Source: an uncultured Candidatus Saccharibacteria bacterium (lineage in GTDB: Bacteria; Patescibacteriota; WWE3; 9FT-COMBO-53-11). From it: 64,000 nt of DNA. The notes below the pieces were generated by a model. The model made no database searches. It saw nothing but the letters and a program-made list of their open reading frames with translations, and had not been told where the DNA came from. Numbering within the stretch: position 1 is the stretch's first letter; each line of letters starts with the position of its first letter. Shown in pieces: positions 5,899 through 58,262 of the stretch. The stretch covers positions 85,018 through 149,017 of the forward strand of contig CAYGCK010000001.1 in NCBI GenBank assembly GCA_964348395.1, given 5' to 3'. Made by a program: the position numbers and the translations under genes.

Positions 5899-5973
5899 TC
5901 CCCGGTAGCTCAGCGGTAGAGCGCCCGCCTGTTAAGCGGTAGGTCGATGGTTCGAATCCATCCCGGGGAGCCA
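5899..5973 (+). tRNA. tRNA-Asn (anticodon GTT)
   Basis: Manual cloverleaf: acceptor TCCCCGG/CCGGGGA, D arm GCTC-AGCGGTA-GAGC, anticodon loop CTGTTAA, T arm GATGG-TTCGAAT-CCATC, discriminator G, encoded CCA. Confidence 0.85.
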
Positions 5974-27137: not shown

Positions 27138-27464
27138 ATGGCTATCTCAATAGACGAGTTTAAGAAAATTGAATTGAAGGTAGGGAAGGTTCTAAAGGTC
27201 GAAGAGGTCGATGGGTTGGATAAGCTCTATAAACTCTCGGTCGATATCGGCGAGGGGGAGCCTCGAAATCTTCTTGCTGGTGTTAAGGAGTTTATGAAAC
27301 CTCAAGAGCTCGAGGGTAAGAGTATCGTGGTCGTCGCCAACTTGGAGCCCAAAGAGGTAAAGGGGATAGTTTCGGAGGGTATGCTTCTGGCCGCTGACGA
27401 GGACGGGCGGCCGATTCTTCTCACTCCAGAGGAAAACGTCGCCCCGGGAACGCCCGTCAGATGA
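27138..27464 (+). CDS. tRNA-binding domain protein (CsaA/Trbp111/EMAP-like)
   Basis: Typical Trbp111 pattern FKKIELKVGKVLKVEEV...LKLSVDIGEG. Confidence 0.8.
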   Translation: MAISIDEFKKIELKVGKVLKVEEVDGLDKLYKLSVDIGEGEPRNLLAGVKEFMKPQELEGKSIVVVANLEPKEVKGIVSEGMLLAADEDGRPILLTPEENVAPGTPVR

Positions 27465-28345
27465 ACGTCTTGGAACGAGCTGATCGCAAGCGAAATATCG
27501 AAGGCAACCCCGCAGGAGCGGTGGCGATTTTAGAAAAAGCCCTCCAAGACGCCAAGGACGAGGACCGGATACCTATTCTTCTCAAGCTTGCAAACTATCA
27601 AATCGACGTCGGGCAAGTGGAGGAGGCACAGAATTCCTTTAAGCAGGTCATTGACCTTGCCCGAGCGGGAAAGGAATACCTGGCTTTGGCCGATGCTCAG
27701 AGGAAGTGGGCCTATCTCCTTTGGCACCAACATGCCAATAAGGAGGAGGCACTTTCCCTAGCCCGTAGCGCTCTTAGGGCGCTGAAGAAGGATTCGAAGA
27801 GTTCCAGGAGAGAAAATCTAAAGGTAGCCGCCAACATTTTTGCGACCTTTGGCAATATCTACGGAGACTCCAAGGAGTTTAGGAAGGCCTCCATTTGGTA
27901 CCGCAAAGCTTTAGGCAGTGCTGAAGATGCGGGGTTCAAGGAGCGGACGGTGACGGTTTTGGGGGACTTAGGGAATCTATTTCTTTGGCGAAAAGACTAC
28001 TCAGAAGCCAGAGAGTATCTTCAGCAGGCGGCTAGGCGAGCCAAGAGGTATTACCGACACGCCTACCCTTCATCACTGCTGAGATTGGGTCGACTCTATC
28101 TTCAACAAGAGGATCTCCTGCGAGCTGAGAAGTTTGCTCGGGAATCTCTAGAGGCCTCTTTGAAAGGAGAGTGGGAGAGGGAGAAAGCCGACGCTTGGGA
28201 CTTACTTGGTGATATAGCTAGTGTTAGAGGGGGGAAACGGGAAGCAGAGAGGTTTTACCGGCGTGCGTTGGAAAGCTACCTTAAGATCAAACACATACCA
28301 AGTGCGGAGAGAGTTCGGAGTAAAATTAAAGCGCTGGTAAAATAA
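27461..28345 (+). CDS. TPR-repeat protein
   Basis: Repeated W..LG..Y....Y..A...Y..AL 34-aa periodicity. Confidence 0.65.
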   Translation: MNVLERADRKRNIEGNPAGAVAILEKALQDAKDEDRIPILLKLANYQIDVGQVEEAQNSFKQVIDLARAGKEYLALADAQRKWAYLLWHQHANKEEALSLARSALRALKKDSKSSRRENLKVAANIFATFGNIYGDSKEFRKASIWYRKALGSAEDAGFKERTVTVLGDLGNLFLWRKDYSEAREYLQQAARRAKRYYRHAYPSSLLRLGRLYLQQEDLLRAEKFARESLEASLKGEWEREKADAWDLLGDIASVRGGKREAERFYRRALESYLKIKHIPSAERVRSKIKALVK

Positions 28346-28350
28346 GGCGA

Positions 28351-28426
28351 GGGCGCGTAGCTCAACGGTTAGAGCACCAAGCTTATACCTTGGGGGTTCC
28401 TGGTTCGAATCCAGGCGCGCCCACCA
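28351..28426 (+). tRNA. tRNA-Ile (anticodon TAT/UAU)
   Basis: Manual fold: GGGCGCG/CGCGCCC acceptor, D arm GCTC-AACGGTTA-GAGC, anticodon stem CCAAG/CTTGG with loop CTTATAC, T arm CCTGG-TTCGAAT-CCAGG, encoded CCA. Confidence 0.75.
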
Positions 28427-28432
28427 GACGTT

Positions 28433-29296
28433 TTACTCATCACACACTCGATAGCTCACCTGGTCAAATAGTTCCCCGCTCGCTCTAACCACCGCAAGAG
28501 TCGCCTCGCAACCCTCGATATCGACTCTTACAAAGTGGTTATCCTGGAGTTTCGCCTTTGAAGAGCCGAGCGGCGCCCCGAGTGAGTAAGTCGTCGCTCC
28601 GCCCCCGCCGGTTACGATATAAACCACCCCACCTGCCTCGAGGCGCTCGTAGTTATGCTCGTGTCCCGAAAACACGAGATCCACTTGGTATCTGTCGAAT
28701 AAATGGACGAGTTTATCCTGGACTTGTGCGTTTGAGCCGTGGACGGTTCCCGAGGAGAAAGGTGGGTGGTGAAAGAAGACCACTCTTATGGTGGAGGTGG
28801 CTTTTGAAAGTTCCTCCTCGATCCAAGTAATCTGCGTGCTATCGAGGTTGTTTGTATCGAGCGAGATAAAAAGAGCGCCGCTCTCTTCAAATGAGTAATA
28901 ACGTCCGTATTCTTTAAAGTAGCTAAGGTAAGAGGATAGGGAGTCGCACTGGTAGTCGTGGTTGCCAGGTGAAGGGTAGATGGCCCTGCTTTCTAAGAAC
29001 TCGGCGTATATATCGCCAAAGCGGGTTTTATAGCCTTCCTTGGTCCCGCACGGGTAGACGACGTCTCCGGTCAAGATAGCAAACGTTGTCTCTTCCTCAT
29101 CCATTAGCGAAGCCAGCGCCTTTTGAACGTCTCCCCCAGTTCCGCTATCTCCAAAGGCGAGAAAGGAGAAAGCAGCTGTTTCGCTTGCTGGGGGTTGATA
29201 CTGGGGCTCTTCGATCCGGCGAGCGAAAATGATTAAGAACGCCGCCAAGAGGATTAGGGTCACTGTCGCGATTTTGAGGGCCTTATTAAACCTCAC
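28433..29296 (-). CDS. calcineurin-like metallophosphoesterase (secreted or membrane-anchored)
   Basis: Metallophosphoesterase motifs GDSGTGG, GDVVY, GNHDY, GHEHNYER. Confidence 0.8.
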   Translation of the reverse strand: MRFNKALKIATVTLILLAAFLIIFARRIEEPQYQPPASETAAFSFLAFGDSGTGGDVQKALASLMDEEETTFAILTGDVVYPCGTKEGYKTRFGDIYAEFLESRAIYPSPGNHDYQCDSLSSYLSYFKEYGRYYSFEESGALFISLDTNNLDSTQITWIEEELSKATSTIRVVFFHHPPFSSGTVHGSNAQVQDKLVHLFDRYQVDLVFSGHEHNYERLEAGGVVYIVTGGGGATTYSLGAPLGSSKAKLQDNHFVRVDIEGCEATLAVVRASGELFDQVSYRVCDE

Positions 29297-29375
29297 TTGT
29301 CTACATTAAAGAATATCAAAGGGTCTTATATTTTCTGGAATAATACCCCTTATCTTTTGCTAACATTCCTTATAG

Positions 29376-32000
29376 ATGGAGCAACTTGACAAAGCCTATA
29401 CACTCTCGACATCCCAGGTTCTCCGTGCCGCAGAGACGGCCGAGGGCGGGCTTTCCACTGAAGAAGCGGAGCGCCGTTTGAACAAGTTCGGCTCCAACGT
29501 AATTCTTGAGGAGAAGAAGTTTAAGACCTTGAGACTTCTCGCGTCCCAATTTAAAAATTTCTTTATCGTTCTCCTTATATTCGCTTCTATTCTTTCCTTC
29601 GCTTTCGAGTCCGCCACGAACGGTTTTGTACTTCTCGTGGTCGTGGCGCTCAACGTCGCGGTCTCATTTCTCCAGGAGCGAAAGGCTGAAAAGACCATTG
29701 AATCGCTTCGCAAGATATACCCCAACAAGGTTGAGGTTATTCGCTCAGGCGAGTCGATGCGAGTTGATATACACGAGATCGTGGTTGGGGATGTCGTCGT
29801 TTTGAGAGAAGGGGTGGCGGTTCCTGCCGATTTGAGACTTCTTGAGGAGAGCGACCTCAAAGTGGACGAGGCGGCCTTGACTGGTGAGTCCGTGGTATCG
29901 GAGAAGGTTACCAAGGGTCTTGGGGAGGGTGTAGCCCTAGGGGACAGAAAAAATATGGCTTTTGCCGGAACGCTGGTGGTTGCCGGAGAGGGACTCGGGG
30001 TCGTGGTCGCAACCGGTGGCGCGACAGAGCTTGGGCGTATCGCCGCCTTCGTCCAGGAGGAGGAGGAGCGAAGCCTCCTTCTTGAAAGAATTGCCCATCT
30101 TGGTGTTTGGCTGGTCGGTATATCCGCGATGCTCTCTCTTCTTATACTTGCGCTGGGGTTCATAAGAAGCCACGAGCTCATTCATACGGTAAACTTTGCG
30201 ATAGCGGTTTTTGTTTCGGCGGTACCGGAGAGTTTGCCGACCATAACCACCCTTGCGTTGGCGCTTTCGGCGCTTAGACTATCCAAAAGGAGAGTTCTTG
30301 TTCGCCACTTGGCTACGGCCGAAACGCTTTCCGGTATCGATCTTTTTGCTTTCGACAAGACCGGGACTCTCACACTAAACGAGATGTCGGTTGCGAAAAT
30401 CGTCTTGCCAAGCCGTGAGTTTGAGGTGACCGGAACTGGGTTCTCATCCGCGGGGGAAATTTTGGAGGGTGGTAGGGCAGTCGACCCCAAAAGCGATAAG
30501 GAGCTTTCGCGGTTCGTGAAGGTTGGGACGCTTTCCGCCTCCGCCGCCATACTGCCCGCCGGAGACGGCGGCGAACACTTTGTCGTTCGCGGCGACCCGA
30601 CCGAGGGGGCTTTCCACGTTCTCGCTCGCAAAGCGGGTGTGGGCACCGACCGTGCGAAGTTTATCAAAGACTTTACTTTCACATCGGCCCGCCGTATGAG
30701 ATCTCGGGTTTTTAAGGAGGGGGAGAACTATCACGTTTATGCCCTTGGGGCACCGGAGGAGATCTTGGCCCTGTGTCCCCAGCACGAGGAGGGTTTGCAG
30801 CAGCAAGCCGACGAGCTAGCTAGGGCGGGGTACAGGGTTTTGGCTTTGGCTACTAAAACCTATCGTGGAGGTGGGTTAAAGCGTGAGGAGGTCGAGCGGG
30901 ACCTAACGTTTGTTGGTTTTGGGGCGCTCCTTGATAAACCAAAAGAACACGTTGCGGATACGTTTAGAACGTTGAGGGGAGCAGGGATAAGACCAATCGT
31001 TATAACCGGCGATCACCCGGGGACGGCGCTCGCGGTTGCCAGAAGCCTGGGCCTTGAGGTGTCCGATAAAAGCGTCCTTTCGGGCCGCGACTTGGATGGT
31101 CTATCTGATGAGGAACTTATTAGGGTTGCCCCGCATATCTGGGTCTTTGCGCGTATCTCGCCGACTCAAAAATATCGGTTGGTTTCTATCTTCAAGGATA
31201 AGATGGGCCTTAGGGTAGCGGTTTCGGGGGATGGGGTAAACGACGCCCCAGCCCTCAAAAAATCCGACGTAGGAGTGGTGATGGGTCGCAAGGGCACCGA
31301 CGTCTCAAAAGACGCGGCGGACCTTGTCATTATGGATGACGAGATAGAGGCGGTCTTGCCGGCAATATCGGAAGCCAGAACCCTCTACGACAATATCAAG
31401 AAATTCTTTACCTTCCTTTTGTCAGGGAACTTTGAGGAACTTCTTATTATCGCGGCCGCGCTTGTATTGGGTTTGCCCCAACCGTTTACTACCATTCAAA
31501 TACTTTGGGTAAATTTTGTGACCGATGCTTTCCCGGCCTTTGCCCTAGCTTACGATCCTCCCAGCGAGGAAACGCTTAAGACCAAACCCCGGGATTTAAG
31601 CTCTAAAATGATTCGCCCCGTGCTCTTATACGCCCTTTTTCTAGGTGCTATATCACTTATCGGGGAGTCGTTCCTTTTTGTCTCTTATCTTCCCGACGTG
31701 GACTTGGCCCGAACCATGATTTTCACCGGAGCCGTATTGTTTGAACTTTTCATTGTCTTTTCTATAAGGACCTCCGGACCCATTTGGGAAGGTCTTTTTA
31801 CCAACCGCTATCTTATCTGGGCGTTTCTGCTATCTTTTTCGCTTCAGCTTTTGGCGATTTACCTCCCTCCCTTGCAGTCCGCTATGGGAACCGTCGCCTT
31901 GGACGCCGAGCATTTCGGCATCGTGGGGGCGTTTGTACTGGCGTCTTTGGTTATTACCGAAACCGGAAAATGGGTAGTTAGATTGCGCTCTGGTGGTTAA
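29376..32000 (+). CDS. P-type cation-transporting ATPase (type II-like)
   Basis: P-type ATPase motifs DKTGTLT, TGES, GDGVNDAPAL, and 10 TM helices. Confidence 0.9.
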   Translation: MEQLDKAYTLSTSQVLRAAETAEGGLSTEEAERRLNKFGSNVILEEKKFKTLRLLASQFKNFFIVLLIFASILSFAFESATNGFVLLVVVALNVAVSFLQERKAEKTIESLRKIYPNKVEVIRSGESMRVDIHEIVVGDVVVLREGVAVPADLRLLEESDLKVDEAALTGESVVSEKVTKGLGEGVALGDRKNMAFAGTLVVAGEGLGVVVATGGATELGRIAAFVQEEEERSLLLERIAHLGVWLVGISAMLSLLILALGFIRSHELIHTVNFAIAVFVSAVPESLPTITTLALALSALRLSKRRVLVRHLATAETLSGIDLFAFDKTGTLTLNEMSVAKIVLPSREFEVTGTGFSSAGEILEGGRAVDPKSDKELSRFVKVGTLSASAAILPAGDGGEHFVVRGDPTEGAFHVLARKAGVGTDRAKFIKDFTFTSARRMRSRVFKEGENYHVYALGAPEEILALCPQHEEGLQQQADELARAGYRVLALATKTYRGGGLKREEVERDLTFVGFGALLDKPKEHVADTFRTLRGAGIRPIVITGDHPGTALAVARSLGLEVSDKSVLSGRDLDGLSDEELIRVAPHIWVFARISPTQKYRLVSIFKDKMGLRVAVSGDGVNDAPALKKSDVGVVMGRKGTDVSKDAADLVIMDDEIEAVLPAISEARTLYDNIKKFFTFLLSGNFEELLIIAAALVLGLPQPFTTIQILWVNFVTDAFPAFALAYDPPSEETLKTKPRDLSSKMIRPVLLYALFLGAISLIGESFLFVSYLPDVDLARTMIFTGAVLFELFIVFSIRTSGPIWEGLFTNRYLIWAFLLSFSLQLLAIYLPPLQSAMGTVALDAEHFGIVGAFVLASLVITETGKWVVRLRSGG

Positions 32001-32219: not shown

Positions 32220-33122
32220 TTACAGTTCGGCGAGATCCATCTTCTCCTGAGGAGCTGAGACCTCGATGTGGTCGAGGTACTTCTCGGTCGTTGAAAGGCG
32301 TTTGTGCCCCGCAATCTTCGAGACCAAAACCAGCGAGGCTCCGCGCTTTAGATGGTGAGCGATAAAGGTGTGCCTAAGATCGTTTACGGTCGCATCGTCG
32401 ATTCCAGCAAGCTCAAGATAGCGCTTGATGGTCGCGCGGATGTTTCTTACGAGAAGAGGTCTCCCGGTTCTTGTTATAAAGACGTGGTTGGACTTGGCGT
32501 TCTTGGGTCTTTCTTTTTCGAGATAGGTCTCGAGTGCCTTTTGTGCCCTTGAGTTTAGAGGAACTTTTCGCTCTGGGTGGCGGTTGAACTCTCTGATGGT
32601 CACCTCCCCAGCTCTTGTGCCTTTGCCAAACTTAATGTCCTCAAGACGAAGCCGCGACAATTCCCCGATTCTTACGCCGGTCTGAAGCAAAAGCTCGACG
32701 ATGGAGTAGGTTCTCGCGTCGTTTCGCACAGCGTCTCGAAGCGCTCTATATTCGGTTTCGGAAAGAATACGCGGAGGCTTGGCCTCAAATTTAGGATGCT
32801 CTACCAAAAGCGCCGGGTCGTCGGTTATAAACTCGTTGACCTTAATGTATCTAAAGAAGCTCTTGACGGCGTTGGTTTTTCGGGAAACGGACTTTTTGGT
32901 GTAGCCGCGCTTTAGGAGCTTGGCCATAAAAGCCTCTATATCGTCTTTGGTTATCTCGGCGATGTGCGCTTTCTCAAGTTCCTGAAGAAACTCGATAAGC
33001 TGGTCGATATCTTTACCATAGGCCAAAACCGTAGCGTGTGCCCGGTTTTTGCTCTTCAAATGGTCTATGAACTTTTGGTGCGCGTCTTTCATCGGTATCA
33101 TTATCGGATAAAAGAATAGCAC
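32220..33122 (-). CDS. tyrosine site-specific recombinase (XerC/XerD family)
   Basis: Catalytic signature R...HxxR...Y (LRHTFIAHHL, GHKRLSTTEKYLD) and an N-terminal SAM-like domain. Confidence 0.85.
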   Translation of the reverse strand: MLFFYPIMIPMKDAHQKFIDHLKSKNRAHATVLAYGKDIDQLIEFLQELEKAHIAEITKDDIEAFMAKLLKRGYTKKSVSRKTNAVKSFFRYIKVNEFITDDPALLVEHPKFEAKPPRILSETEYRALRDAVRNDARTYSIVELLLQTGVRIGELSRLRLEDIKFGKGTRAGEVTIREFNRHPERKVPLNSRAQKALETYLEKERPKNAKSNHVFITRTGRPLLVRNIRATIKRYLELAGIDDATVNDLRHTFIAHHLKRGASLVLVSKIAGHKRLSTTEKYLDHIEVSAPQEKMDLAEL

Positions 33123-33157: not shown

Positions 33158-33643
33158 TTGGATAACGGTATCTATGGGAATGTTGATATAATTTTTCCGA
33201 TGGAACGACCTGCCCGTGGACCGCGAAGTAAAACCTTACACCGCGTTTTCTCGTTTCTCACTTCTGGGAAGATATTTCTTCCTCTTTTTGTTTTATCTAT
33301 GTTTCTTTTGGTTAAAAGCTTCTATGGCGTACGTTCAAAAGGAGAGGAGCTTTCACGTCTAGAGACAGAGGTGGAAGCTCTGGAGGGTAAGGTTGAGGAG
33401 CAACTGGGAGAACTCGACTACAGAAATTCGGAAGAGTTTGTCTATAAGGAAGCTTTGGAACAGCTCGGTTACACAAGGCCCGGTGAGGTGATTGCGGTCT
33501 TACCGGATTTTGAGGAGGGTAAAACCTTATCCGCAGAGGAGGGAGCGTCGTCCAATGAAGAGGAGGAACCTTCCGAGACCGCTGTGCAGGAGGAGCCCGC
33601 TCCCAATTGGAAGAGGTGGCGAATACTCTTTTTCGGCAGCTGA
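33158..33643 (+). CDS. septum-formation initiator family protein (FtsB/DivIC-like)
   Basis: TM helix, a coiled coil, and the signature EFVYKEALEQLGYTRPGEVI. The start codon is uncertain. Confidence 0.55.
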   Translation: MDNGIYGNVDIIFPMERPARGPRSKTLHRVFSFLTSGKIFLPLFVLSMFLLVKSFYGVRSKGEELSRLETEVEALEGKVEEQLGELDYRNSEEFVYKEALEQLGYTRPGEVIAVLPDFEEGKTLSAEEGASSNEEEEPSETAVQEEPAPNWKRWRILFFGS

Positions 33644-33810
33644 TCCAGCTAAGCTGGACTGGTTTGGATATAGAAACCTTTTGAATCCCCTGTTATCATG
33701 AAGATGAGCCCAAAGCGGGCTGGTGGAACGGTTTACCACGCGTGGCTCATAACCACGAGGACCTGGTTCAACTCCAGGGCCCGCAACCAGGCCTGCCTGT
33801 CGGCAGACAA

Positions 33811-33888
33811 GGCTGGGTAGCTCAGTCGGTTAGTAGCGCCGCCCTCATAAAGCGGAGGTCGTGGGTTCGAATCCCACCCCAGCCACCA
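33811..33888 (+). tRNA. tRNA-Met (anticodon CAT), elongator-type
   Basis: Manual fold: GGCTGGG/CCCAGCC acceptor, anticodon loop CTCATAA, T arm GTGGG-TTCGAAT-CCCAC, encoded CCA. A G1-C pair argues against an initiator. Confidence 0.75.
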
Positions 33889-33942
33889 CGCGGGTTATTC
33901 AATTTCCCCTTTTGCTGTGGTGAGTGTTATCATTTCTCTGTT

Positions 33943-34929
33943 ATGGCAAAACGAGTTTTGACAGGAGATCGCCCGACGGGGCCGTTACATTTGGGACATT
34001 ATGTCGGGAGCTTAAAGGCCCGTCTCGAACTTCAAGATAAAGGTGCCGAGGTATTTATTTTCGTCGCCGATTACCACTCTCTGACTCGCGGCATAAGCCC
34101 CGAGAGAACTAAGAAAATCAAACAAAACACCCGCGGACTTCTTTTGGACTACCTTTCCGTGGGGCTCGATCCCGAAAAAATCACCATCTATCGCCAATCA
34201 GACATTCCCCAGGTCGCCGAACTGGCGCTCCTTTTTGGAATGTTAGTCACCGTCCCGCGGCTATCGAGGGTTCCTACGCTCAAGGAGGTTATGAGAGACG
34301 AGAAGATACAGACCCCCTCGTTCGGGCTCTTGGGTTACCCGGTCTTGCAGGCGGCGGATATAGCGTTGGTAAAGGGCGAGGTGGTCCCGGTGGGCCGCGA
34401 TCAGGCCTCGCATCTGGAAGTGACCCGCGAGATAATCCGCCGGTTCAACGGCGATTTTAAGAAGGTCTTCCCCGTGCCCGAGGCCCTCATAAAGGGAGAG
34501 GTTCTGCCCGGGACCGATGGGCAAGCAAAGATGAGTAAATCCCTGGGCAACGCCATCATGCTCTCCGACGACCCCTCTACTGTAAAGAAGAAGGTCGAGG
34601 GGATGTATACCGACCCCAAGAGGGTCCACCAGAGTGACCCCGGGAGCGTCGAGGGCAACCCCGTCTTCTCTTATTTAGACGCCTTCGCTACCGACACCCG
34701 AAAGGTGTCGGAGTATAAAAAGCGTTACCGCGCTGGGACCGTAGGGGATGTAGAGATCAAGGGGTATCTGGCTGAGATTCTGGACGAATTTCTGGGACCC
34801 ATTAGGAAACGCCGAAGCCAATTGGTAAAATCTACCGAGTTGGATAAAATCCTAGAGAACGGAAGAGACAAAGTTTCCTCAATCGCCGACGTGACGCTTA
34901 AGGAGGCTCGCGAAGCGATGGGGTTGTAA
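33943..34929 (+). CDS. trpS: tryptophanyl-tRNA synthetase
   Basis: Class I HIGH-like GHYVG and KMSKS motifs. The start is placed after the tRNA because the ORF-track start at 33742 overlaps the tRNA. Confidence 0.9.
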   Translation: MAKRVLTGDRPTGPLHLGHYVGSLKARLELQDKGAEVFIFVADYHSLTRGISPERTKKIKQNTRGLLLDYLSVGLDPEKITIYRQSDIPQVAELALLFGMLVTVPRLSRVPTLKEVMRDEKIQTPSFGLLGYPVLQAADIALVKGEVVPVGRDQASHLEVTREIIRRFNGDFKKVFPVPEALIKGEVLPGTDGQAKMSKSLGNAIMLSDDPSTVKKKVEGMYTDPKRVHQSDPGSVEGNPVFSYLDAFATDTRKVSEYKKRYRAGTVGDVEIKGYLAEILDEFLGPIRKRRSQLVKSTELDKILENGRDKVSSIADVTLKEAREAMGL

Positions 34930-34933
34930 GCCG

Positions 34934-36760
34934 ATGCAACGCTCAAGACTACCGAAAAACCTTAAATCTCCTGCGCGAAAAGGTCAAAACCTGGTGTCCT
35001 GGCTGTTTTTCGCTATAGTTCTGGTCATCATACTTTGGGCTTTTGCTACCCCTATTTCGCAGCCCGTGGAGGTTCCGGTATCTGAGGTTCTATCCTCCAT
35101 TGAGGCCGGGGAGGTTAAAAGAATCGAAATCACCGGGGACAAGCTTTCCGTAACCTTTAAGTCTGGGGAGGAGGTTGTCTCGACCAAGGAGACCGACTTT
35201 GGTTTTTTGGAGATACTTGCGCAATCCGGGGTGGACCCCTCTTTGGTCGAAGAAGGCATTGGGGTTAAGAAAGGGTTTCCCTGGGTGGATATTCTTCTTG
35301 GGTTTTTGCCCGTGGGTTTGATTATTCTGTTCTTCTTCTACTTCTCCAGGCAGGCTCGCGGGGGCGTGTCGGATATTCTCTCTTTTGGGCGGTCTCGCGC
35401 AGAGCTTTTTATCCGCGGTCGCCAGCCCAAGATTACCTTCGCGGATGTGGCGGGTGTGGATGAGGCCGAACAGGAGCTGGAGGAGGTCGTCGATTTCTTA
35501 AAGAACCCCGGCAAATACAGAGCTCTTGGCGCACGTATTCCCAAAGGAGTGCTTCTGGTCGGGCCAGCAGGCACGGGGAAAACTCTCTTGGCCCGCGCGG
35601 TGGCGGGCGAGGCTAACGCTCCCTTCTACTCCATTTCCGGATCGGAGTTTATGGAGATGTTGGTGGGTGTTGGCGCGGCGCGTGTCCGGGACCTTTTTGA
35701 GACCGCCAAAAGGAATGCACCGGCGATTATCTTTATCGACGAGATAGAGTCCATCGGTCGCCAGCGAGGAATCGGAATTACCGGGGGGCATGAGGAGAGG
35801 GAGCAAACCTTGAACCAGATTTTGACCGAGATGGACGGTTTTACCCCCTCCGATAACGTTATAGTTTTGGCGGCCACCAATCGCCCCGAACTCTTGGACC
35901 CCGCCCTGACCCGCCCGGGTCGTTTCGACCGGCGAGTCGTTTTGGACCTCCCCGATATTGAGGGGCGCGTTGGGATATTTAAAATTCACTCTCGAGGCAA
36001 GCCCTTGGCCCGCGCGGTGGACCTTAAAAAGATCGCCAAGCGAACGGTTGGTTTCTCCGGAGCGGATATCGAAAATATGTTGAATGAGGCGGCAATTCTA
36101 GCCGCCCGAGAGGGGAAGAAGTCCGTAAGTATGAAGCACCTCGAGGAGGCGGCGACCAAAGTGAAGCTCGGGCCGGAAAAAAGGCGACTGCAATCCCCGG
36201 AGGAGAGACGTATGACGGCTTATCACGAGGCAGGCCACGCCATAGTTGCCTCGCAGCTGCCTCATATGGACCCGGTTCACAGAGTGAGTATTGTTTCCCG
36301 AGGCGTGGCTCTTGGATTTACAGAAATTCCCCCTGCCATAGATCGTTATCAGCACACGCAAAGCGAACTTGAGGAGAGGATTGCGTCTCTTCTCGGTGGG
36401 CGGGCTTCTGAGGAGTTCATCTTTAACGAGTTTACGGTTGGGGCGGCCTCGGATCTTGCCCAAGCCACAGCCATCGCCCGCAAGATGGTTTCGGAGTTTG
36501 GGATGTCCGAGCTCGGACCCGTTTCCACAGGAGGTGGGGAGAGAGTTTGGTTTGGAATGACCAGGGATCCTGAGGGCTGGTCGGACGATACCGCATCCCG
36601 AGTAGACGAGGAGGTAAGAAAGATCCTTAACCGCGCCTACAGCCGAGCGAAGGAAGTACTGCAAGCAAACCGCGATAAACTCGATCGAGTTACCGACGCG
36701 CTTCTTAAACAGGAAACCATAGAAGGGGAGGAATTCAAGCGGTTGATAACCGCAAAGTAA
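34934..36760 (+). CDS. ftsH: ATP-dependent zinc metalloprotease FtsH
   Basis: N-terminal TM helices, AAA Walker A GPAGTGKT, and the HEAGHA zinc motif. Confidence 0.95.
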
Positions 36761-36801: not shown

Positions 36802-37740
36802 GTGAACCGCCTAGTCCTAATCGATACCGCCAACTTCTTACACCGCGCCTTTTATGCCTTTCCTATGAACCTGACCGCTTCCGATGGGCAGGTGATAAAC
36901 GCCGTCTACGGGTTCTCCTCCATGCTTATCAACCTTGTAAAGGAGCTCGAACCCACCCATCTGGCCTGCGCAATGGAATCTGAGGAGGAGGTCGTCTTTC
37001 GGGAGGTGGAATTTCCCGAGTATAAGGCGACAAGGGTTCCCAAATCTCCGGAGGAGCAGGTCGCCTACGAGTCTCAGTTTCCTCTTGTATTGGAGCTTTT
37101 GGCGGCTGCTGATATTAAGACGCTTACGGCCGAAGGATATGAGGCAGACGACGTTATTGGGACGGTGGCAAAACAAGTCACAAGTAGCAAGTCACAAATA
37201 GCAAGAAGGACAGAAGTGATAATCACATCTAACGACCGGGATCTGATGCAGCTTATCGACGGGCGAGTCAAGTTCTACCTTCCGGCGGTGGGCAAGAATA
37301 AAGCCAAACTCTACAGGAGAAGGGAGTTTTTGGAGGAGTACGGGTTCGCTCCAGAAAATCTCGTCGATTTCAAAGCTTTGCGAGGAGATACCTCGGATAA
37401 CATCCCCGGGGTCCGCGGTATAGGGGAAAAAACCGCGACGGAGCTTATCAGAAAACATGGAAACCTTGAGAAGATTTATAAAAATATATTGGAGATAAGG
37501 CCTGCGGTTGCCACCAAGCTAAACGACGGGAAAGACAAAGCAGAACTTTCCAAACGCTTAGCTACCATAGCGACCGAAGCACCGCTCCGGTTCAAGCTCT
37601 CCGATCTAAAATTTGGAGGATTTGTCAACGACAAAGTTGTGCAGCTCTTCGAGAAATGGAATTTCAAATCCTTGCTGGCAAAAATCAATAATTCTCCCGA
37701 GACGAAGGTAGAAAGCGAAGATCAACTAAAACTGCTCTAA
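36802..37740 (+). CDS. stand-alone 5'-3' exonuclease (Pol I N-terminal domain / FEN family)
   Basis: Typical Pol I 5'-3' exonuclease pattern LIDTANFLHRAFYA..., GYEADDVIGT, and an H3TH motif. GTG start. Confidence 0.8.
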   Translation: MNRLVLIDTANFLHRAFYAFPMNLTASDGQVINAVYGFSSMLINLVKELEPTHLACAMESEEEVVFREVEFPEYKATRVPKSPEEQVAYESQFPLVLELLAAADIKTLTAEGYEADDVIGTVAKQVTSSKSQIARRTEVIITSNDRDLMQLIDGRVKFYLPAVGKNKAKLYRRREFLEEYGFAPENLVDFKALRGDTSDNIPGVRGIGEKTATELIRKHGNLEKIYKNILEIRPAVATKLNDGKDKAELSKRLATIATEAPLRFKLSDLKFGGFVNDKVVQLFEKWNFKSLLAKINNSPETKVESEDQLKLL

Positions 37741-42739: not shown

Positions 42740-44542
42740 GTGAAGTTCTCCCGTCTAGCAGATTACTTCTCCAAAATAGAAGCGACCCCAAAGCGGCTTG
42801 AAATGACCGACCTTCTGGCCAAGCTCCTCAAGGAAGCGACATCCTCGGAAATAGACAAAATATGCTACCTCGCCTTGGGCCAGCTAGCTCCTCTTTACGA
42901 GGGTGTCGAGTTTAATCTCGCCGAGAAGATGATGGTCCGCATTATGGCGGAGGCGTACGACAAACCCCAAGAGGAGGTCCGCAAGCTCTACAAAAAGAAA
43001 GGGGACTTGGGCGAGGCGGCGGAGGAACTGGGTTCAAAGTTTAAAGTTAAAAGTTTAAAGTTGACAGTTGACCAGGTTTATAGGGAGTTGAGGAAAGTAG
43101 CAGAGATTGAGGGGGCGGGATCGCAGGAGAAAAAGGTTAAGTGGGCGGCTGAGCTTCTCAAGAAACTCGACCCCTTGTCCACCCGCTTTGTGACTCGCAT
43201 ACCGGTCAAAAAGCTTCGGCTCGGGTTTTCCGACAAAACTATCCTCGACGCGCTCTCCGTCATGGAGGTCGGGGACAAGAGCGCCAGGGCGGGTATAGAG
43301 CGCGCTTACAACGTATTGGCGGATATTGGGAAAATCGCCCAACTTGTCAAGACTAAAGGGGTCAAGGGGCTTGCAAAAATTAAAGTGTCGGTCGGGACCC
43401 CCGTCAGGATGGCCGCCGCCGAGCGCCTTCCTACCCCCCAGGAAATTATCGACAAGATGGGGGGCCGGCTCGCCGCCGAGCCCAAATACGACGGCTTTCG
43501 CGTGCAACTTCACCTCGATAAGTCAAGGAAGCTCAAAGAACGCGAGGGGGGTGAGCAGCTTGCTCTTCTGGCGGCCGAGGTAGGGGGTCCTTGGGTCAAG
43601 ATTTTCTCCCGCAATTTGGAGGACACGACCGCTATGTTCCCAGAGATAGTTGCGGCGGCGCAAAAACTCCCGGCTAAAAGCGTGATTATGGAGGGTGAGG
43701 CGATAGCTTACAACCCCGAAACAGAGGAGTTTGAGCCTTTCCAGGAAACGGCCAAAAGGAAGCGCAAGTACGACGTTATGGAGAAAGCAGAGAAGCTTCC
43801 TCTTAAGGTTTTCGCTTTTGACCTTTTGTATCTCGACGGTCGTGACTTAACCCACAACCCCTATTCCACAAGGCGCGGAGCTCTGGAGAAATTGGTAAAA
43901 GGTTCCGAGAACACCATACTCATAGCCGAGGAACACGAATTTAAAGACGCAGAGAGACTCCAGGAGTTCTTTATGGAACAGGTCGAACACGGGCTTGAGG
44001 GGATAATGACCAAGAGATTGGACGGCGTTTACCAAGCCGGGGTTCGGAATTTCAATTGGGTAAAGCTCAAGAGGGTTGAGGAAGGGGAGCTCGAGGACAC
44101 CATAGACTGCGTGGTATTAGGGTACTACCGTGGTCGCGGCAAGAGGGCAGAGTTTGGCATAGGCGGTTTTTTGGTCGCGGTTTATGACGATAAGGCCGAC
44201 GCCTTCAAGACCATATCCCGGGTGGGGACTGGTTTAAAGGATGAGGAATGGCGAGAGATGAAAAGGAGGGTCGATAAGATATCGGTTAAAGAGAAGCCCA
44301 AGAATGTCAAGGTTGTCAAAGAGCTCGTTCCGGATGTTTGGGCCGCGCCGCAGATTGTAGTTGCCATTCGAGCCGACGAGATAACCCGCTCGCCCTTGCA
44401 TACCGCTGGGGCCCGGGGGGACGAGCCGGGGCTTGCCCTACGCTTTCCTCGACTTATGGCTTTTCGGAATGATAAGGCGCCGGAGCAAGCGACGACGGTT
44501 TTGGAGGTTGAGAAGCTTTTTAAGAAGCAGCGAAAGCGGTAA
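42740..44542 (+). CDS. ATP-dependent DNA ligase (archaeal/eukaryotic Lig I-like)
   Basis: Adenylation motif I EPKYDGFR (KxDG), an N-terminal DNA-binding domain and an OB domain, about 600 aa. GTG start. Confidence 0.9.
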   Translation: MKFSRLADYFSKIEATPKRLEMTDLLAKLLKEATSSEIDKICYLALGQLAPLYEGVEFNLAEKMMVRIMAEAYDKPQEEVRKLYKKKGDLGEAAEELGSKFKVKSLKLTVDQVYRELRKVAEIEGAGSQEKKVKWAAELLKKLDPLSTRFVTRIPVKKLRLGFSDKTILDALSVMEVGDKSARAGIERAYNVLADIGKIAQLVKTKGVKGLAKIKVSVGTPVRMAAAERLPTPQEIIDKMGGRLAAEPKYDGFRVQLHLDKSRKLKEREGGEQLALLAAEVGGPWVKIFSRNLEDTTAMFPEIVAAAQKLPAKSVIMEGEAIAYNPETEEFEPFQETAKRKRKYDVMEKAEKLPLKVFAFDLLYLDGRDLTHNPYSTRRGALEKLVKGSENTILIAEEHEFKDAERLQEFFMEQVEHGLEGIMTKRLDGVYQAGVRNFNWVKLKRVEEGELEDTIDCVVLGYYRGRGKRAEFGIGGFLVAVYDDKADAFKTISRVGTGLKDEEWREMKRRVDKISVKEKPKNVKVVKELVPDVWAAPQIVVAIRADEITRSPLHTAGARGDEPGLALRFPRLMAFRNDKAPEQATTVLEVEKLFKKQRKR

Positions 44543-57900: not shown

Positions 57901-58159
57901 AATCGAGATCGGGTAGGATTGCTCCGACTAGTACCTCTCTGGCGGCGTCGATTCGCTGTTGAATCTCCGCCCGGAGTTTTCTCCTTCTGGCGAGATAGGG
58001 AGGATTCTCCGCCAGCGCCAGCTGGTAGGTCCCCTTGGCGATATGCATGTACTCCAAGGCGGCCTCCCTTTGGCTCTTGCTCAAACCCTCCTGTTCCAGA
58101 AGGTCTTGACCCGCGTTGAAGAAGGTCTCGGCTATCGCCATCTGAAGCGGGACGATCAT
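57899..58159 (-). CDS. hypothetical alpha-helical protein
   Basis: 86-aa ORF followed by a terminator. Confidence 0.45.
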   Translation of the reverse strand: MIVPLQMAIAETFFNAGQDLLEQEGLSKSQREAALEYMHIAKGTYQLALAENPPYLARRRKLRAEIQQRIDAAREVLVGAILPDLD

Positions 58160-58262
58160 CTCTTACCTCCTTTCCCCAGTTATTACTGGAAATGATAGCA
58201 CGATAACATTCGTCTGCCTCCTCTGTTAAACTAATTTTGATGTTGAAGCGTCTTTTCGCTCC

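Follow-up and report, generated by a model that had tools for sequence, protein, structure and literature searches.

How does a bacterium read the isoleucine codon AUA when its DNA encodes a tRNA-Ile with a UAU anticodon, and would such a gene stand in for the TilS/lysidine system or work beside it? The question is raised by a gene at 28351..28426 (+) of the window, the whole 64-kb stretch of DNA analysed here. TilS occurs in 98% of the bacteria surveyed and is regarded as evolutionarily stable (PMC6063277), the review literature calls the UAU anticodon 'lost in prokaryotes', and the view in 2013 was of nine tilS-less species, three clades, with a bacterial tRNA-Ile(UAU) (PMC3575796). Very probably, the gene is a functional, vertically inherited tRNA-Ile(UAU) of a Kazan-like CPR bacterium that inserts isoleucine at AUA and belongs to a CPR-wide family of the ftsH neighbourhood. 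The message of this single window is modest: the gene is real, appears functional from its sequence, and is typical of its lineage. The novel part is the broader replacement that it may exemplify.

The tRNA-Ile(UAU) gene and its homologues

In the window, ARAGORN calls a tRNA-Ile of 76 nt with anticodon (tat) at exactly 28351..28426 (+), and the same interval matches Rfam RF00005 over the whole model with 73 bits (gathering score 29, E 4.7e-14), the top score among the four tRNAs of the window; the others are a tRNA-Asn(gtt), called by ARAGORN at 5899-5973, and two CAU tRNAs described below. The letters are GGGCGCG-TA-GCTC-AACGGTTA-GAGC-A-CCAAG-CUUAUAC-CTTGG-GGGTT-CCTGG-TTCGAAT-CCAGG-CGCGCCC-A-CCA. 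They form a 7-bp acceptor stem (GGGCGCG/CGCGCCC), a D arm (GCTC/GAGC), an anticodon stem (CCAAG/CTTGG), a variable loop of 5 nt, and a T arm (CCTGG/CCAGG), and the 3' end has the discriminator A73 followed by a CCA in the gene. The anticodon loop CUUAUAC corresponds to C32 U33 U34 A35 U36 A37 C38, with the anticodon bases at 28384-28386. A first-pass annotation, made from the letters alone, had described a tRNA-Ile with a UAU anticodon, which is borne out by ARAGORN and Rfam at the same coordinates. The cloverleaf elements it listed (7-bp acceptor, CCAAG/CTTGG, loop CUUAUAC, CCA) are all present in the sequence, and ARAGORN, which it had proposed to run on the whole genome, puts TAT at anticodon position 34, as it had read.

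We aligned 133 distinct tRNA-Ile(UAU) sequences, 17 of which were selected through FtsH and not through the tRNA. Across this set, 99.3% of the cloverleaf cells are paired, and double-sided changes occur at 17 of the 21 pairs (848 cells); none of 500 shuffles reaches the observed values, and the slid controls are all at or below 45% paired. C32, U33, the anticodon UAU (34-36), A37, A73, and U12:A23 are invariant in 133/133 sequences, and as this invariance is kept in the 17 FtsH-derived sequences, it is not an artefact of the collection method. Position 38 is A in 68 sequences, C in 51, and U in 14, and 4:69 is C:G in 95/133. The orthologue of Kazan bacterium GW2011_GWB1_52_7 differs from the window tRNA at six positions, four of which make up two compensatory pairs. 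A generic 55-nt tRNA-Ile(UAU) pattern matches the window once, versus no match in 100 shuffles, and this result, together with a cloverleaf held by compensatory changes in 133 homologues, excludes a chance origin. ARAGORN, Rfam, the homologue alignment, and the Kazan orthologue show that 28351..28426 is a genuine tRNA-Ile(UAU) gene, intact, conserved, and under structural selection.

The identity elements recognized by E. coli IleRS are A73, C4:G69, U12:A23, C29:G41, A37, and A38. By these E. coli-defined elements, the window tRNA has A73, C4:G69, U12:A23, and A37, but A29:U41 and C38.

The ftsH neighbourhood, the host lineage, and spread in CPR

The tRNA sits in a conserved neighbourhood anchored by ftsH (34934..36760 (+), NCBIfam TIGR01241, 732 bits). 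Upstream of the tRNA, a small tRNA-binding-domain protein (27138..27464 (+), PF01588, Trbp111/CsaA-like, Pfam E 1e-27) is followed by a TPR-repeat protein (27461..28345 (+), Pfam TPR families) that stops 5 nt short of the tRNA. A promoter/terminator scan around the tRNA returned nothing exceeding shuffle expectation; as it revealed no promoter-like site in the gap between the two, co-transcription of the TPR gene and the tRNA is likely. Downstream lie a metallophosphoesterase gene convergent with the tRNA (28433..29296 (-), Pfam PF00149), a P-type Ca2+/cation ATPase between the tRNA and xer (29376..32000 (+), NCBIfam), and a XerC/D-like tyrosine recombinase of the Phage_integrase family (32220..33122 (-), NCBIfam), which is a conserved neighbour of tRNA-Ile(UAU). 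A DivIC-like septum formation initiator (33158..33643 (+), Pfam PF04977), an initiator-type tRNA(CAU) (33714..33789 (+)), an elongator tRNA(CAU) (33811..33888 (+)), and the tryptophan-tRNA ligase gene trpS (33943..34929 (+), NCBIfam TIGR00233, 290 bits) lead up to ftsH, and a stand-alone 5'-3' exonuclease gene comes after trpS and ftsH. Many further ORFs of the window have no family match, and an ATP-dependent DNA ligase is present.

GC content is uniform across the window (50-55%; the genome is given as 52% GC), and the same DNA is found in the metagenome assembly GCA_012975005.1 and in Logan assemblies. The window FtsH shares 75% identity with a protein of a 'Patescibacteria group bacterium', 71% with the FtsH of candidate division Kazan bacterium GW2011_GWB1_52_7, and ~60% with proteins of Gottesman- and Woesebacteria. 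The Kazan contig (GCA_001004445.1) runs tRNA_bind - tRNA-Ile(tat) - P-ATPase - xer - DivIC and then tRNA(CAU) - tRNA(CAU) - trpS - ftsH - exonuclease - glycosyltransferase, i.e., it matches the gene order of the window, including tRNA-Ile(tat), except for the metallophosphoesterase. The FtsH identities and the gene order shared with GW2011_GWB1_52_7 identify the window as part of a Kazan-like member of CPR/Patescibacteria.

The genes around the tRNA differ in their constancy. In the Kazan GWB1_52_7 (L212) and Woesebacteria (L080) loci, no metallophosphoesterase separates the tRNA from xer, and the P-type ATPase is shared with Kazan GWB1_52_7 and locus L124 and missing in the same Woesebacteria locus. 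The tRNA_bind gene directly precedes tRNA-Ile(UAU) in loci L122, L123, and L212; in L080 and others, its place is between trpS and ftsH. The DivIC-like gene occupies the same place in L212 and L220 and adjoins two CAU tRNAs in Southlakia. The synteny tRNA-xer-divIC-tRNA-tRNA-trpS-ftsH is found in Kazan, Woese-, Gottesman-, and Dojkabacteria, and the order in the lineage is tRNA_bind - tRNA-Ile(UAU) - (cargo) - xer - divIC - tRNA-fMet(CAU) - tRNA-Met(CAU) - trpS - ftsH.

The spread of the gene was approached from two sides. One was a deliberately restrictive pattern scan (Ile-like D arm, loop CTTATA, and standard T loop; one genome per species), which returned at least 119 loci; all 119 listed were confirmed as tRNA-Ile(tat) by ARAGORN. 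By record title, the matches listed comprise 73 labelled as CPR groups, 19 as 'bacterium', 11 as 'Gammaproteobacteria'/'Pseudomonadales' MAGs, and three others, and they reach beyond CPR labels to Chloroflexota-type (five), Dormibacterota, Ignavibacteria, Planctomycetota, and 'archaeon' records (two each). The CPR labels among the matches listed include Saccharibacteria, Parcubacteria/Paceibacterota, Nomura-, Uhr-, Taylor-, Kaiser-, Woese-, and Dojkabacteria, as well as Peri-/Peregrini-, Magasanik-, Falkow-, Kuenen-, Collier-, and Buchananbacteria, WWE3, and Microgenomates. These labels are loose: the FtsH of two 'Saccharibacteria' MAGs (L056, L082) is closest to named Paceibacterota, and a 'Gammaproteobacteria' MAG (L021) carries the CPR-type cluster. 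The scan also under-counts, since most UAU tRNAs found through FtsH would fail the pattern; the genome of the window itself is not among the matches listed.

The other, unbiased approach anchored loci on FtsH instead of the tRNA pattern. Among 80 metagenome loci whose FtsH is 54-77% identical to that of the window, the tRNA is present in 16/27 with at least 9 kb upstream. Of 14 FtsH-anchored loci in which xer precedes ftsH and the sequence continues for 2.5 kb or more past xer, tRNA-Ile(tat) lies 7-2335 bp beyond xer in 13. Five FtsH queries (Yanofsky-, Doudna-, Colwell-, and Gottesmanbacteria, plus one JGI metagenome contig with an FtsH of Paceibacterota type), picked solely by name or length of the contig, gave tRNA-Ile(tat) in 8/8 FtsH-selected places. 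The position varies by group: in all seven Paceibacteria-type FtsH places, the tRNA is ~30-260 bp downstream of the ftsH stop, and 14 of the matches listed with ftsH have it 18-153 bp downstream of ftsH; in Kazan and Microgenomates, it is upstream of ftsH, beyond xer. The first-pass annotation had held tRNA-Ile(UAU) to be confined to a few lineages, a view that gives way to at least 119 species-level genomes, 73 of them CPR-labelled among the matches listed, and to the 8/8 FtsH-selected places. For the CPR lineage, tRNA-Ile(UAU) is the norm, though unusual by textbook standards. The literature searched held nothing relevant on lysidine, tilS, or the AUA codon together with CPR/Patescibacteria, and the CPR-wide extent of this tRNA seems under-appreciated and undiscussed.

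Decoding of AUA

Counted over 21 window genes, 158 of 9801 codons are AUA (16.1 per 1000), 31% of all isoleucine codons, which makes it a major codon and not a rare one. Its meaning was read from codon-aware alignments of the window FtsH, TrpS, and 5'-3' exonuclease with 47-107 homologues. At window AUA columns, the homologues of these three proteins have ATT/ATC in 33-52%, Val/Leu in 10-37%, and ATG in only 0-5%; window ATT and ATC codons show the same profile, and window ATG codons match ATG in 33-66%. Since AUA columns align with ATT/ATC/Val/Leu and not with ATG, AUA means isoleucine. The first-pass annotation had suggested a look at AUA usage, and the window genes returned a high usage with AUA as isoleucine.

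The window encodes two tRNAs that read CAU. The initiator-type tRNA at 33714..33789 (ARAGORN; Rfam 51.9 bits), which was absent from the first-pass annotation, has an A1xA72 mismatch, the pairs G2:C71, C3:G70, G4:C69, and G5:C68 as in E. coli tRNA-fMet, and a 3' end ...GCAACCA. The elongator at 33811..33888 (ARAGORN; Rfam 62.4 bits) is tRNA-Met-like, with G1:C72, G2:C71, C3:G70, U4:A69, G5:C68, A73, and a C31.A39 mismatch; its acceptor is close to that of E. coli metT (GGCUA...) and unlike that of E. coli ileX (C4:G69, C5:G68). We parsed 75 CAU tRNAs from the collected loci, with references from the annotated E. coli K-12 record, and found at most two per locus, one initiator-type and one Met-like. 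Members of the initiator family share G2:C71, C3:G70, G4:C69, and G5:C68, the loop CUCAUAA, and a mismatched or weak 1:72 (C.A, C.U, A.A, or U:A), and the elongator family has A:U or U:A at 4:69. Of the 54 parsed CAU tRNAs of the elongator class, only the E. coli ileX reference combines C4:G69 with C5:G68. TilS determinants differ between species (PMC12514573), so the missing Ile2 pairs are only suggestive. The elongator at 33811..33888 looks like a tRNA-Met and not a tRNA-Ile2, as the first-pass annotation had proposed, a reading supported by its metT-like G2:C71, C3:G70, and U4:A69 in place of the C4:G69/C5:G68 of ileX.

Many bacteria carry tilS-hpt directly upstream of ftsH, a spot that trpS fills in the window. 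No TilS-like or PP-loop ORF was found in the 64-kb window. Two ORFs were considered and rejected as tilS: (i) 33742-34929, upstream of ftsH, is trpS with a mechanical start that overlaps both CAU tRNA genes; (ii) 57932-58195 (87 codons), taken as a possible remnant for its SGGxDS motif, has no family match and overlaps other ORFs, and we attribute the motif to chance. Other assemblies of the same organism extend the region by ~11.5 kb (~8.5 kb at the 3' side and 3 kb at the 5' side); tilS/PF01171 was not found in this flank, which holds RpoD, MnmA, and other genes. PF01171 was not found in loci L001, L207, L209, and L212. E. coli TilS had no match by tblastn (best E 0.29) over 1.89 Mb including 111 ftsH neighbourhoods, and PF01171 is missing from the Pfam tables for another five CPR neighbourhoods selected through FtsH; in total, tilS was not found in 116 ftsH neighbourhoods. 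What lies upstream of ftsH is trpS, an S1-domain protein, EF-P, tRNA_bind, smpB, or a protein without assignment, and never TilS; this absence from ftsH neighbourhoods says little, because tilS is not ftsH-linked in the Kazan-like lineage anyway. From the ~75 kb inspected, we consider it rather likely that tilS is missing from the genome of the window organism, so that the tilS loss which the first-pass annotation associates with such tRNAs is plausible here.

Southlakia epibionticum, a cultured Saccharibacterium within CPR, offers an instructive contrast. Its tilS is directly upstream of ftsH (PMC10633639 supplement), it has exactly three 'tRNA-Met' genes, all ~6 kb or less from tilS, two of which flank a DivIC-like gene (PMC10633639), and its one annotated tRNA-Ile is located in the rRNA operon (PMC10633639). 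The equivalent region of the window and of related loci encodes two CAU tRNAs and one UAU tRNA, and tilS was not found there. This is what we would expect if the two decoding systems were alternative states of one locus, a comparison drawn with a single tilS genome and its gene table.

A redundant arrangement has to be weighed against this reading, in which TilS and a tRNA-Ile2(CAU) would be encoded elsewhere in the genome and the UAU tRNA would be an auxiliary reader of AUA. Dual genomes of this kind exist (Lactobacillus casei, Cyanothece PCC 7424, and Ferrimonas balearica; PMC3575796), the stable presence of TilS in 98% of surveyed bacteria (PMC6063277) and its occurrence in the cultured CPR bacterium Southlakia speak for it, and only about 75 kb of the genome was inspected. 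Nevertheless, we regard redundancy as unlikely: tilS was not found in the window, its flanks, or 116 related ftsH neighbourhoods, and each locus has at most two tRNA(CAU) genes, of initiator type and Met-like, while the tilS-bearing Southlakia has three by tilS-ftsH and no second annotated tRNA-Ile. Moreover, a codon that makes up 31% of isoleucine codons needs an abundant decoder, and fixation of the UAU gene over whole CPR classes would be unexpected for a dispensable extra copy.

Two other explanations carry far less weight. The tRNA could have been recently acquired or be decaying, e.g., brought in by a phage or integrative element, as its conserved neighbour xer is a Phage_integrase-family gene and the metallophosphoesterase and P-type ATPase found between the tRNA and xer here are not found there in Woesebacteria. 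However, the order from the tRNA to ftsH is conserved across Kazan, Woese-, Gottesman-, and Dojkabacteria, the orthologues diverge through compensatory changes, the tRNA is the best-scoring one in the window, and the regional GC is uniform, so that this reading is close to refuted and highly improbable. Even less probable is that the tRNA is charged with an amino acid other than isoleucine and that AUA is reassigned, as it is to Met in some mitochondria. A UAU anticodon also reads AUA in reassigned codes, with nothing else specific in favour, whereas window AUA codons fall on ATG in just 0-5% of cases with a profile like that of ATT/ATC, and A73, U12:A23, and A37 are invariant among the homologues; at the level of codon alignments, reassignment appears already refuted.

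We return to the preferred reading, a tRNA-Ile(UAU) that serves AUA as isoleucine. U34 would pair ordinarily with the A of AUA and isoleucine would be inserted, with tRNA-Ile(UAU) standing in for the TilS and tRNA-Ile2(CAU) lysidine system. It is the only AUA-cognate tRNA seen and is probably the main and only AUA decoder. If it is the sole decoder, the IleRS of the Kazan-like lineage must accept U34, which could be explained by an Arg where the E. coli enzyme has W905 (M. mobile type) or by a type-2 IleRS (Bifidobacterium, Neorickettsia). The window and its ~11.5-kb flank yielded no ileS; a 1032-aa gene past the window was considered and is not IleRS. In CPR loci, the class-Ia synthetases encoded close to the tRNA are ValRS, and among UAU-bearing loci ileS occurs only in L038 ('archaeon'), where it adjoins the tRNA-Ile(UAU), in keeping with the archaeal precedent.

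As in Mycoplasma mobile, features of the ribosome or of the tRNA may keep AUG misreading low, and competition from the tRNA-Met encoded 5.4 kb downstream may also curb it. A MnmA gene lies ~7 kb beyond the window, and the established substrates of MnmA carry U35. The first-pass annotation had stated that such a tRNA needs a modified U34; this is no requirement, since M. mobile, the only biochemically studied bacterial case, works with an unmodified U34 and rejects AUG through the ribosome and tRNA-Met competition (PMC3575796).

More tentatively, and with somewhat greater doubt than confidence, we raise the possibility that across much of CPR TilS and tRNA-Ile2(CAU) are absent and a genome-encoded tRNA-Ile(UAU) replaces lysidine, the two systems being alternative states of an ftsH-linked locus. 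The groups concerned are Kazan, Microgenomates (Woese- and Gottesmanbacteria), Dojkabacteria, and Paceibacteria (Yanofsky-, Doudna-, Colwell-, Taylor-, and Nomurabacteria). One state would have tilS and three tRNA(CAU), as in Southlakia; the other would have no tilS, two tRNA(CAU), and one tRNA(UAU); and what separates them would be a switch between C34 and T34, linked to the loss of tilS or to its absence from the outset. If true, CPR would be by far the largest bacterial group that reads AUA without lysidine, and the finding would bear on the proposal that tRNA-Ile(UAU) was the ancestral AUA decoder (Taniguchi et al. 2013, PMC3575796). An ftsH-tied tRNA-Ile(UAU) is the usual state in CPR, a radiation to which much of bacterial diversity may belong. 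A true lack of tilS would mean that TilS cannot serve as a target in all bacteria and that the IleRS and ribosome of CPR must discriminate between AUA and AUG without lysidine; in that case, annotation pipelines should not force an 'Ile2(CAU)' label on either CAU tRNA.

Comparison with known systems

The window gene is another case of a type already known in bacteria from M. mobile and others. It most resembles the tRNA-Ile2(UAU) of Mycoplasma mobile (Taniguchi et al. 2013, PMC3575796), with which it shares a genome-encoded UAU anticodon, A37, a small genome, and AUA as isoleucine; tilS was likewise not found, here for the inspected region only. Four features are shown for M. mobile: the absence of tilS, an unmodified U34, Arg865 in IleRS, and ribosome-dependent rejection of AUG. 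Unlike M. mobile, which is one species, the window-type gene is fixed across CPR, and AUA is a major codon in a genome of 52% GC.

Lactobacillus casei, Cyanothece PCC 7424, and Ferrimonas balearica (PMC3575796) also have a bacterial tRNA-Ile(TAT) gene, and the window organism would be in the same state as these three if tilS were present elsewhere in its genome. It differs from them in that tilS and a third tRNA(CAU) were not seen in the inspected region and in that the UAU gene is conserved in its lineage. With the canonical system of TilS and a lysidine-bearing tRNA-Ile2(CAU), represented by E. coli ileX and Southlakia, it shares the task of bringing isoleucine to AUA, and with Southlakia, also within CPR, the ftsH/DivIC/tRNA(CAU) neighbourhood (PMC10633639). 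In contrast to the canonical system, the PP-loop enzyme was not found in the region read, and the third AUN-box tRNA has T34, not C34; as T34 is encoded, a modification that switches the anticodon is not needed.

Farther afield, a tRNA with U34 reads AUA in Bifidobacterium and Neorickettsia, which have a eukaryote-type IleRS, in Nanoarchaeum and Korarchaeum, and in eukaryotes with their tRNA-Ile(UAU). In the Bifidobacterium/Neorickettsia, archaeal, and eukaryotic cases, acceptance of U34 is attributed to a type-2 IleRS. The eukaryotic tRNA-Ile(UAU) carries pseudouridine at 34 and 36, and the window tRNA gene is without an intron. A suppressor of the Bacillus subtilis tilS deletion (Kohrer et al. 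2014, PMC3919564) shows that one G34-to-U34 change, which yields a UAU anticodon, can substitute for TilS. Unlike that laboratory mutant of tRNA-Ile(GAU) (tRNA-Ile1), the gene in the window is natural, ancient, and separately conserved.

The two tRNA(CAU) genes and codon usage

The window encodes two tRNAs with a CAU anticodon, both on the forward strand. The elongator tRNA-Met (33811-33888, 78 nt) has an irregular D stem, and its anticodon loop is closed by a C31.A39 mismatch. This arrangement, ...CC CUCAUAA AG..., is common to the loci of its closest relatives (L122, L130, L137, and L178), while position 31:39 is A31.A39 or A31.G39 in other CPR relatives. Across the tRNA sequences compared, an unpaired 31:39 position thus looks like a conserved trait of CPR tRNA-Met. 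The initiator-type tRNA(CAU) (33714-33789), absent from the first-pass annotation, carries an A1.A72 mismatch where bacteria have C1.A72, and of the three canonical G:C pairs at 29-31:39-41, only two are present. Among the CAU tRNAs parsed from the related loci, position 1:72 of its relatives is C.A, C.U, A.A, or U:A.

Codon usage was counted over 21 window genes. ATG accounts for only 15 per 1000 codons, with starts counted in, a somewhat low value for a bacterium. In the same genes, most two-fold boxes prefer G-ending codons (i.e., GAG over GAA and TTG over TTA), and ATA is as frequent as ATT despite this preference. Other forward-strand genes of the window include a stand-alone 5'-3' exonuclease (36802-37740) and an ATP-dependent DNA ligase of the archaeal/eukaryote type (42740-44542).

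Genes neighboring tRNA-Ile(UAU)

A stand-alone tRNA-binding-domain protein (PF01588, Trbp111/CsaA-like) of 108 aa, encoded at 27138-27464 (+), is a member of the conserved tRNA-Ile(UAU)/ftsH neighbourhood, with counterparts in the Woesebacteria Ch104b locus (L080, 5905-6252) and the Kazan GW2011_GWB1_52_7 locus (L212, 67-393). Its gene adjoins tRNA-Ile(UAU) in Kazan-like genomes; in Woesebacteria, among others, it sits between trpS and ftsH. The interval between tRNA-Ile(UAU) and xer (28433-32000 in the window) encodes a metallophosphoesterase as well as a P-type cation ATPase, whereas that of Kazan GWB1_52_7 has the P-type cation ATPase without the metallophosphoesterase, and that of Woesebacteria Ch104b has neither. 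Because its contents differ among these three loci, the interval seems, from gene content, to be a variable cargo site.

About 7 kb past the 3' end of the window, the same organism encodes an MnmA-type tRNA 2-thiouridylase of the PP-loop type (L207, 10625-11884) and is therefore predicted to make s2U34 on some tRNAs. A bona fide ileS (TIGR00392, 791 bits) lies ~10 bp downstream of tRNA-Ile(UAU), on the same strand, in a 788-kb contig whose record is labelled ‘archaeon’ (L038, 863-3858). The class-Ia synthetase gene near tRNA-Ile(UAU) in several CPR loci (L012, L036, and L116) is valS, not ileS.

Placement of tRNA-Ile(UAU) at ftsH

Some of the MAG records seem to carry unreliable organism labels (L056, L082, L021, and L003). 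A CPR cluster of tRNA-Ile(UAU), tRNA(CAU), and xer is present in a MAG labelled ‘Gammaproteobacteria’, and the closest named relatives of FtsH from ‘Candidatus Saccharibacteria’ MAGs are Yanofskybacteria, Taylorbacteria, and Paceibacterota.

In Paceibacteria-type genomes, the ftsH stop codon is followed within about 20-260 bp by a same-strand tRNA-Ile(UAU) (loci L010, L018, L020, L034, L043, L056, L060, L072, and others, as well as L213-L219), and tRNA-Val(UAC) often comes next. While tilS precedes ftsH in the cultured Saccharibacterium Southlakia epibionticum and in other bacteria, ftsH of Paceibacteria-type loci has smpB on its upstream side, joined in L219 by tmRNA.
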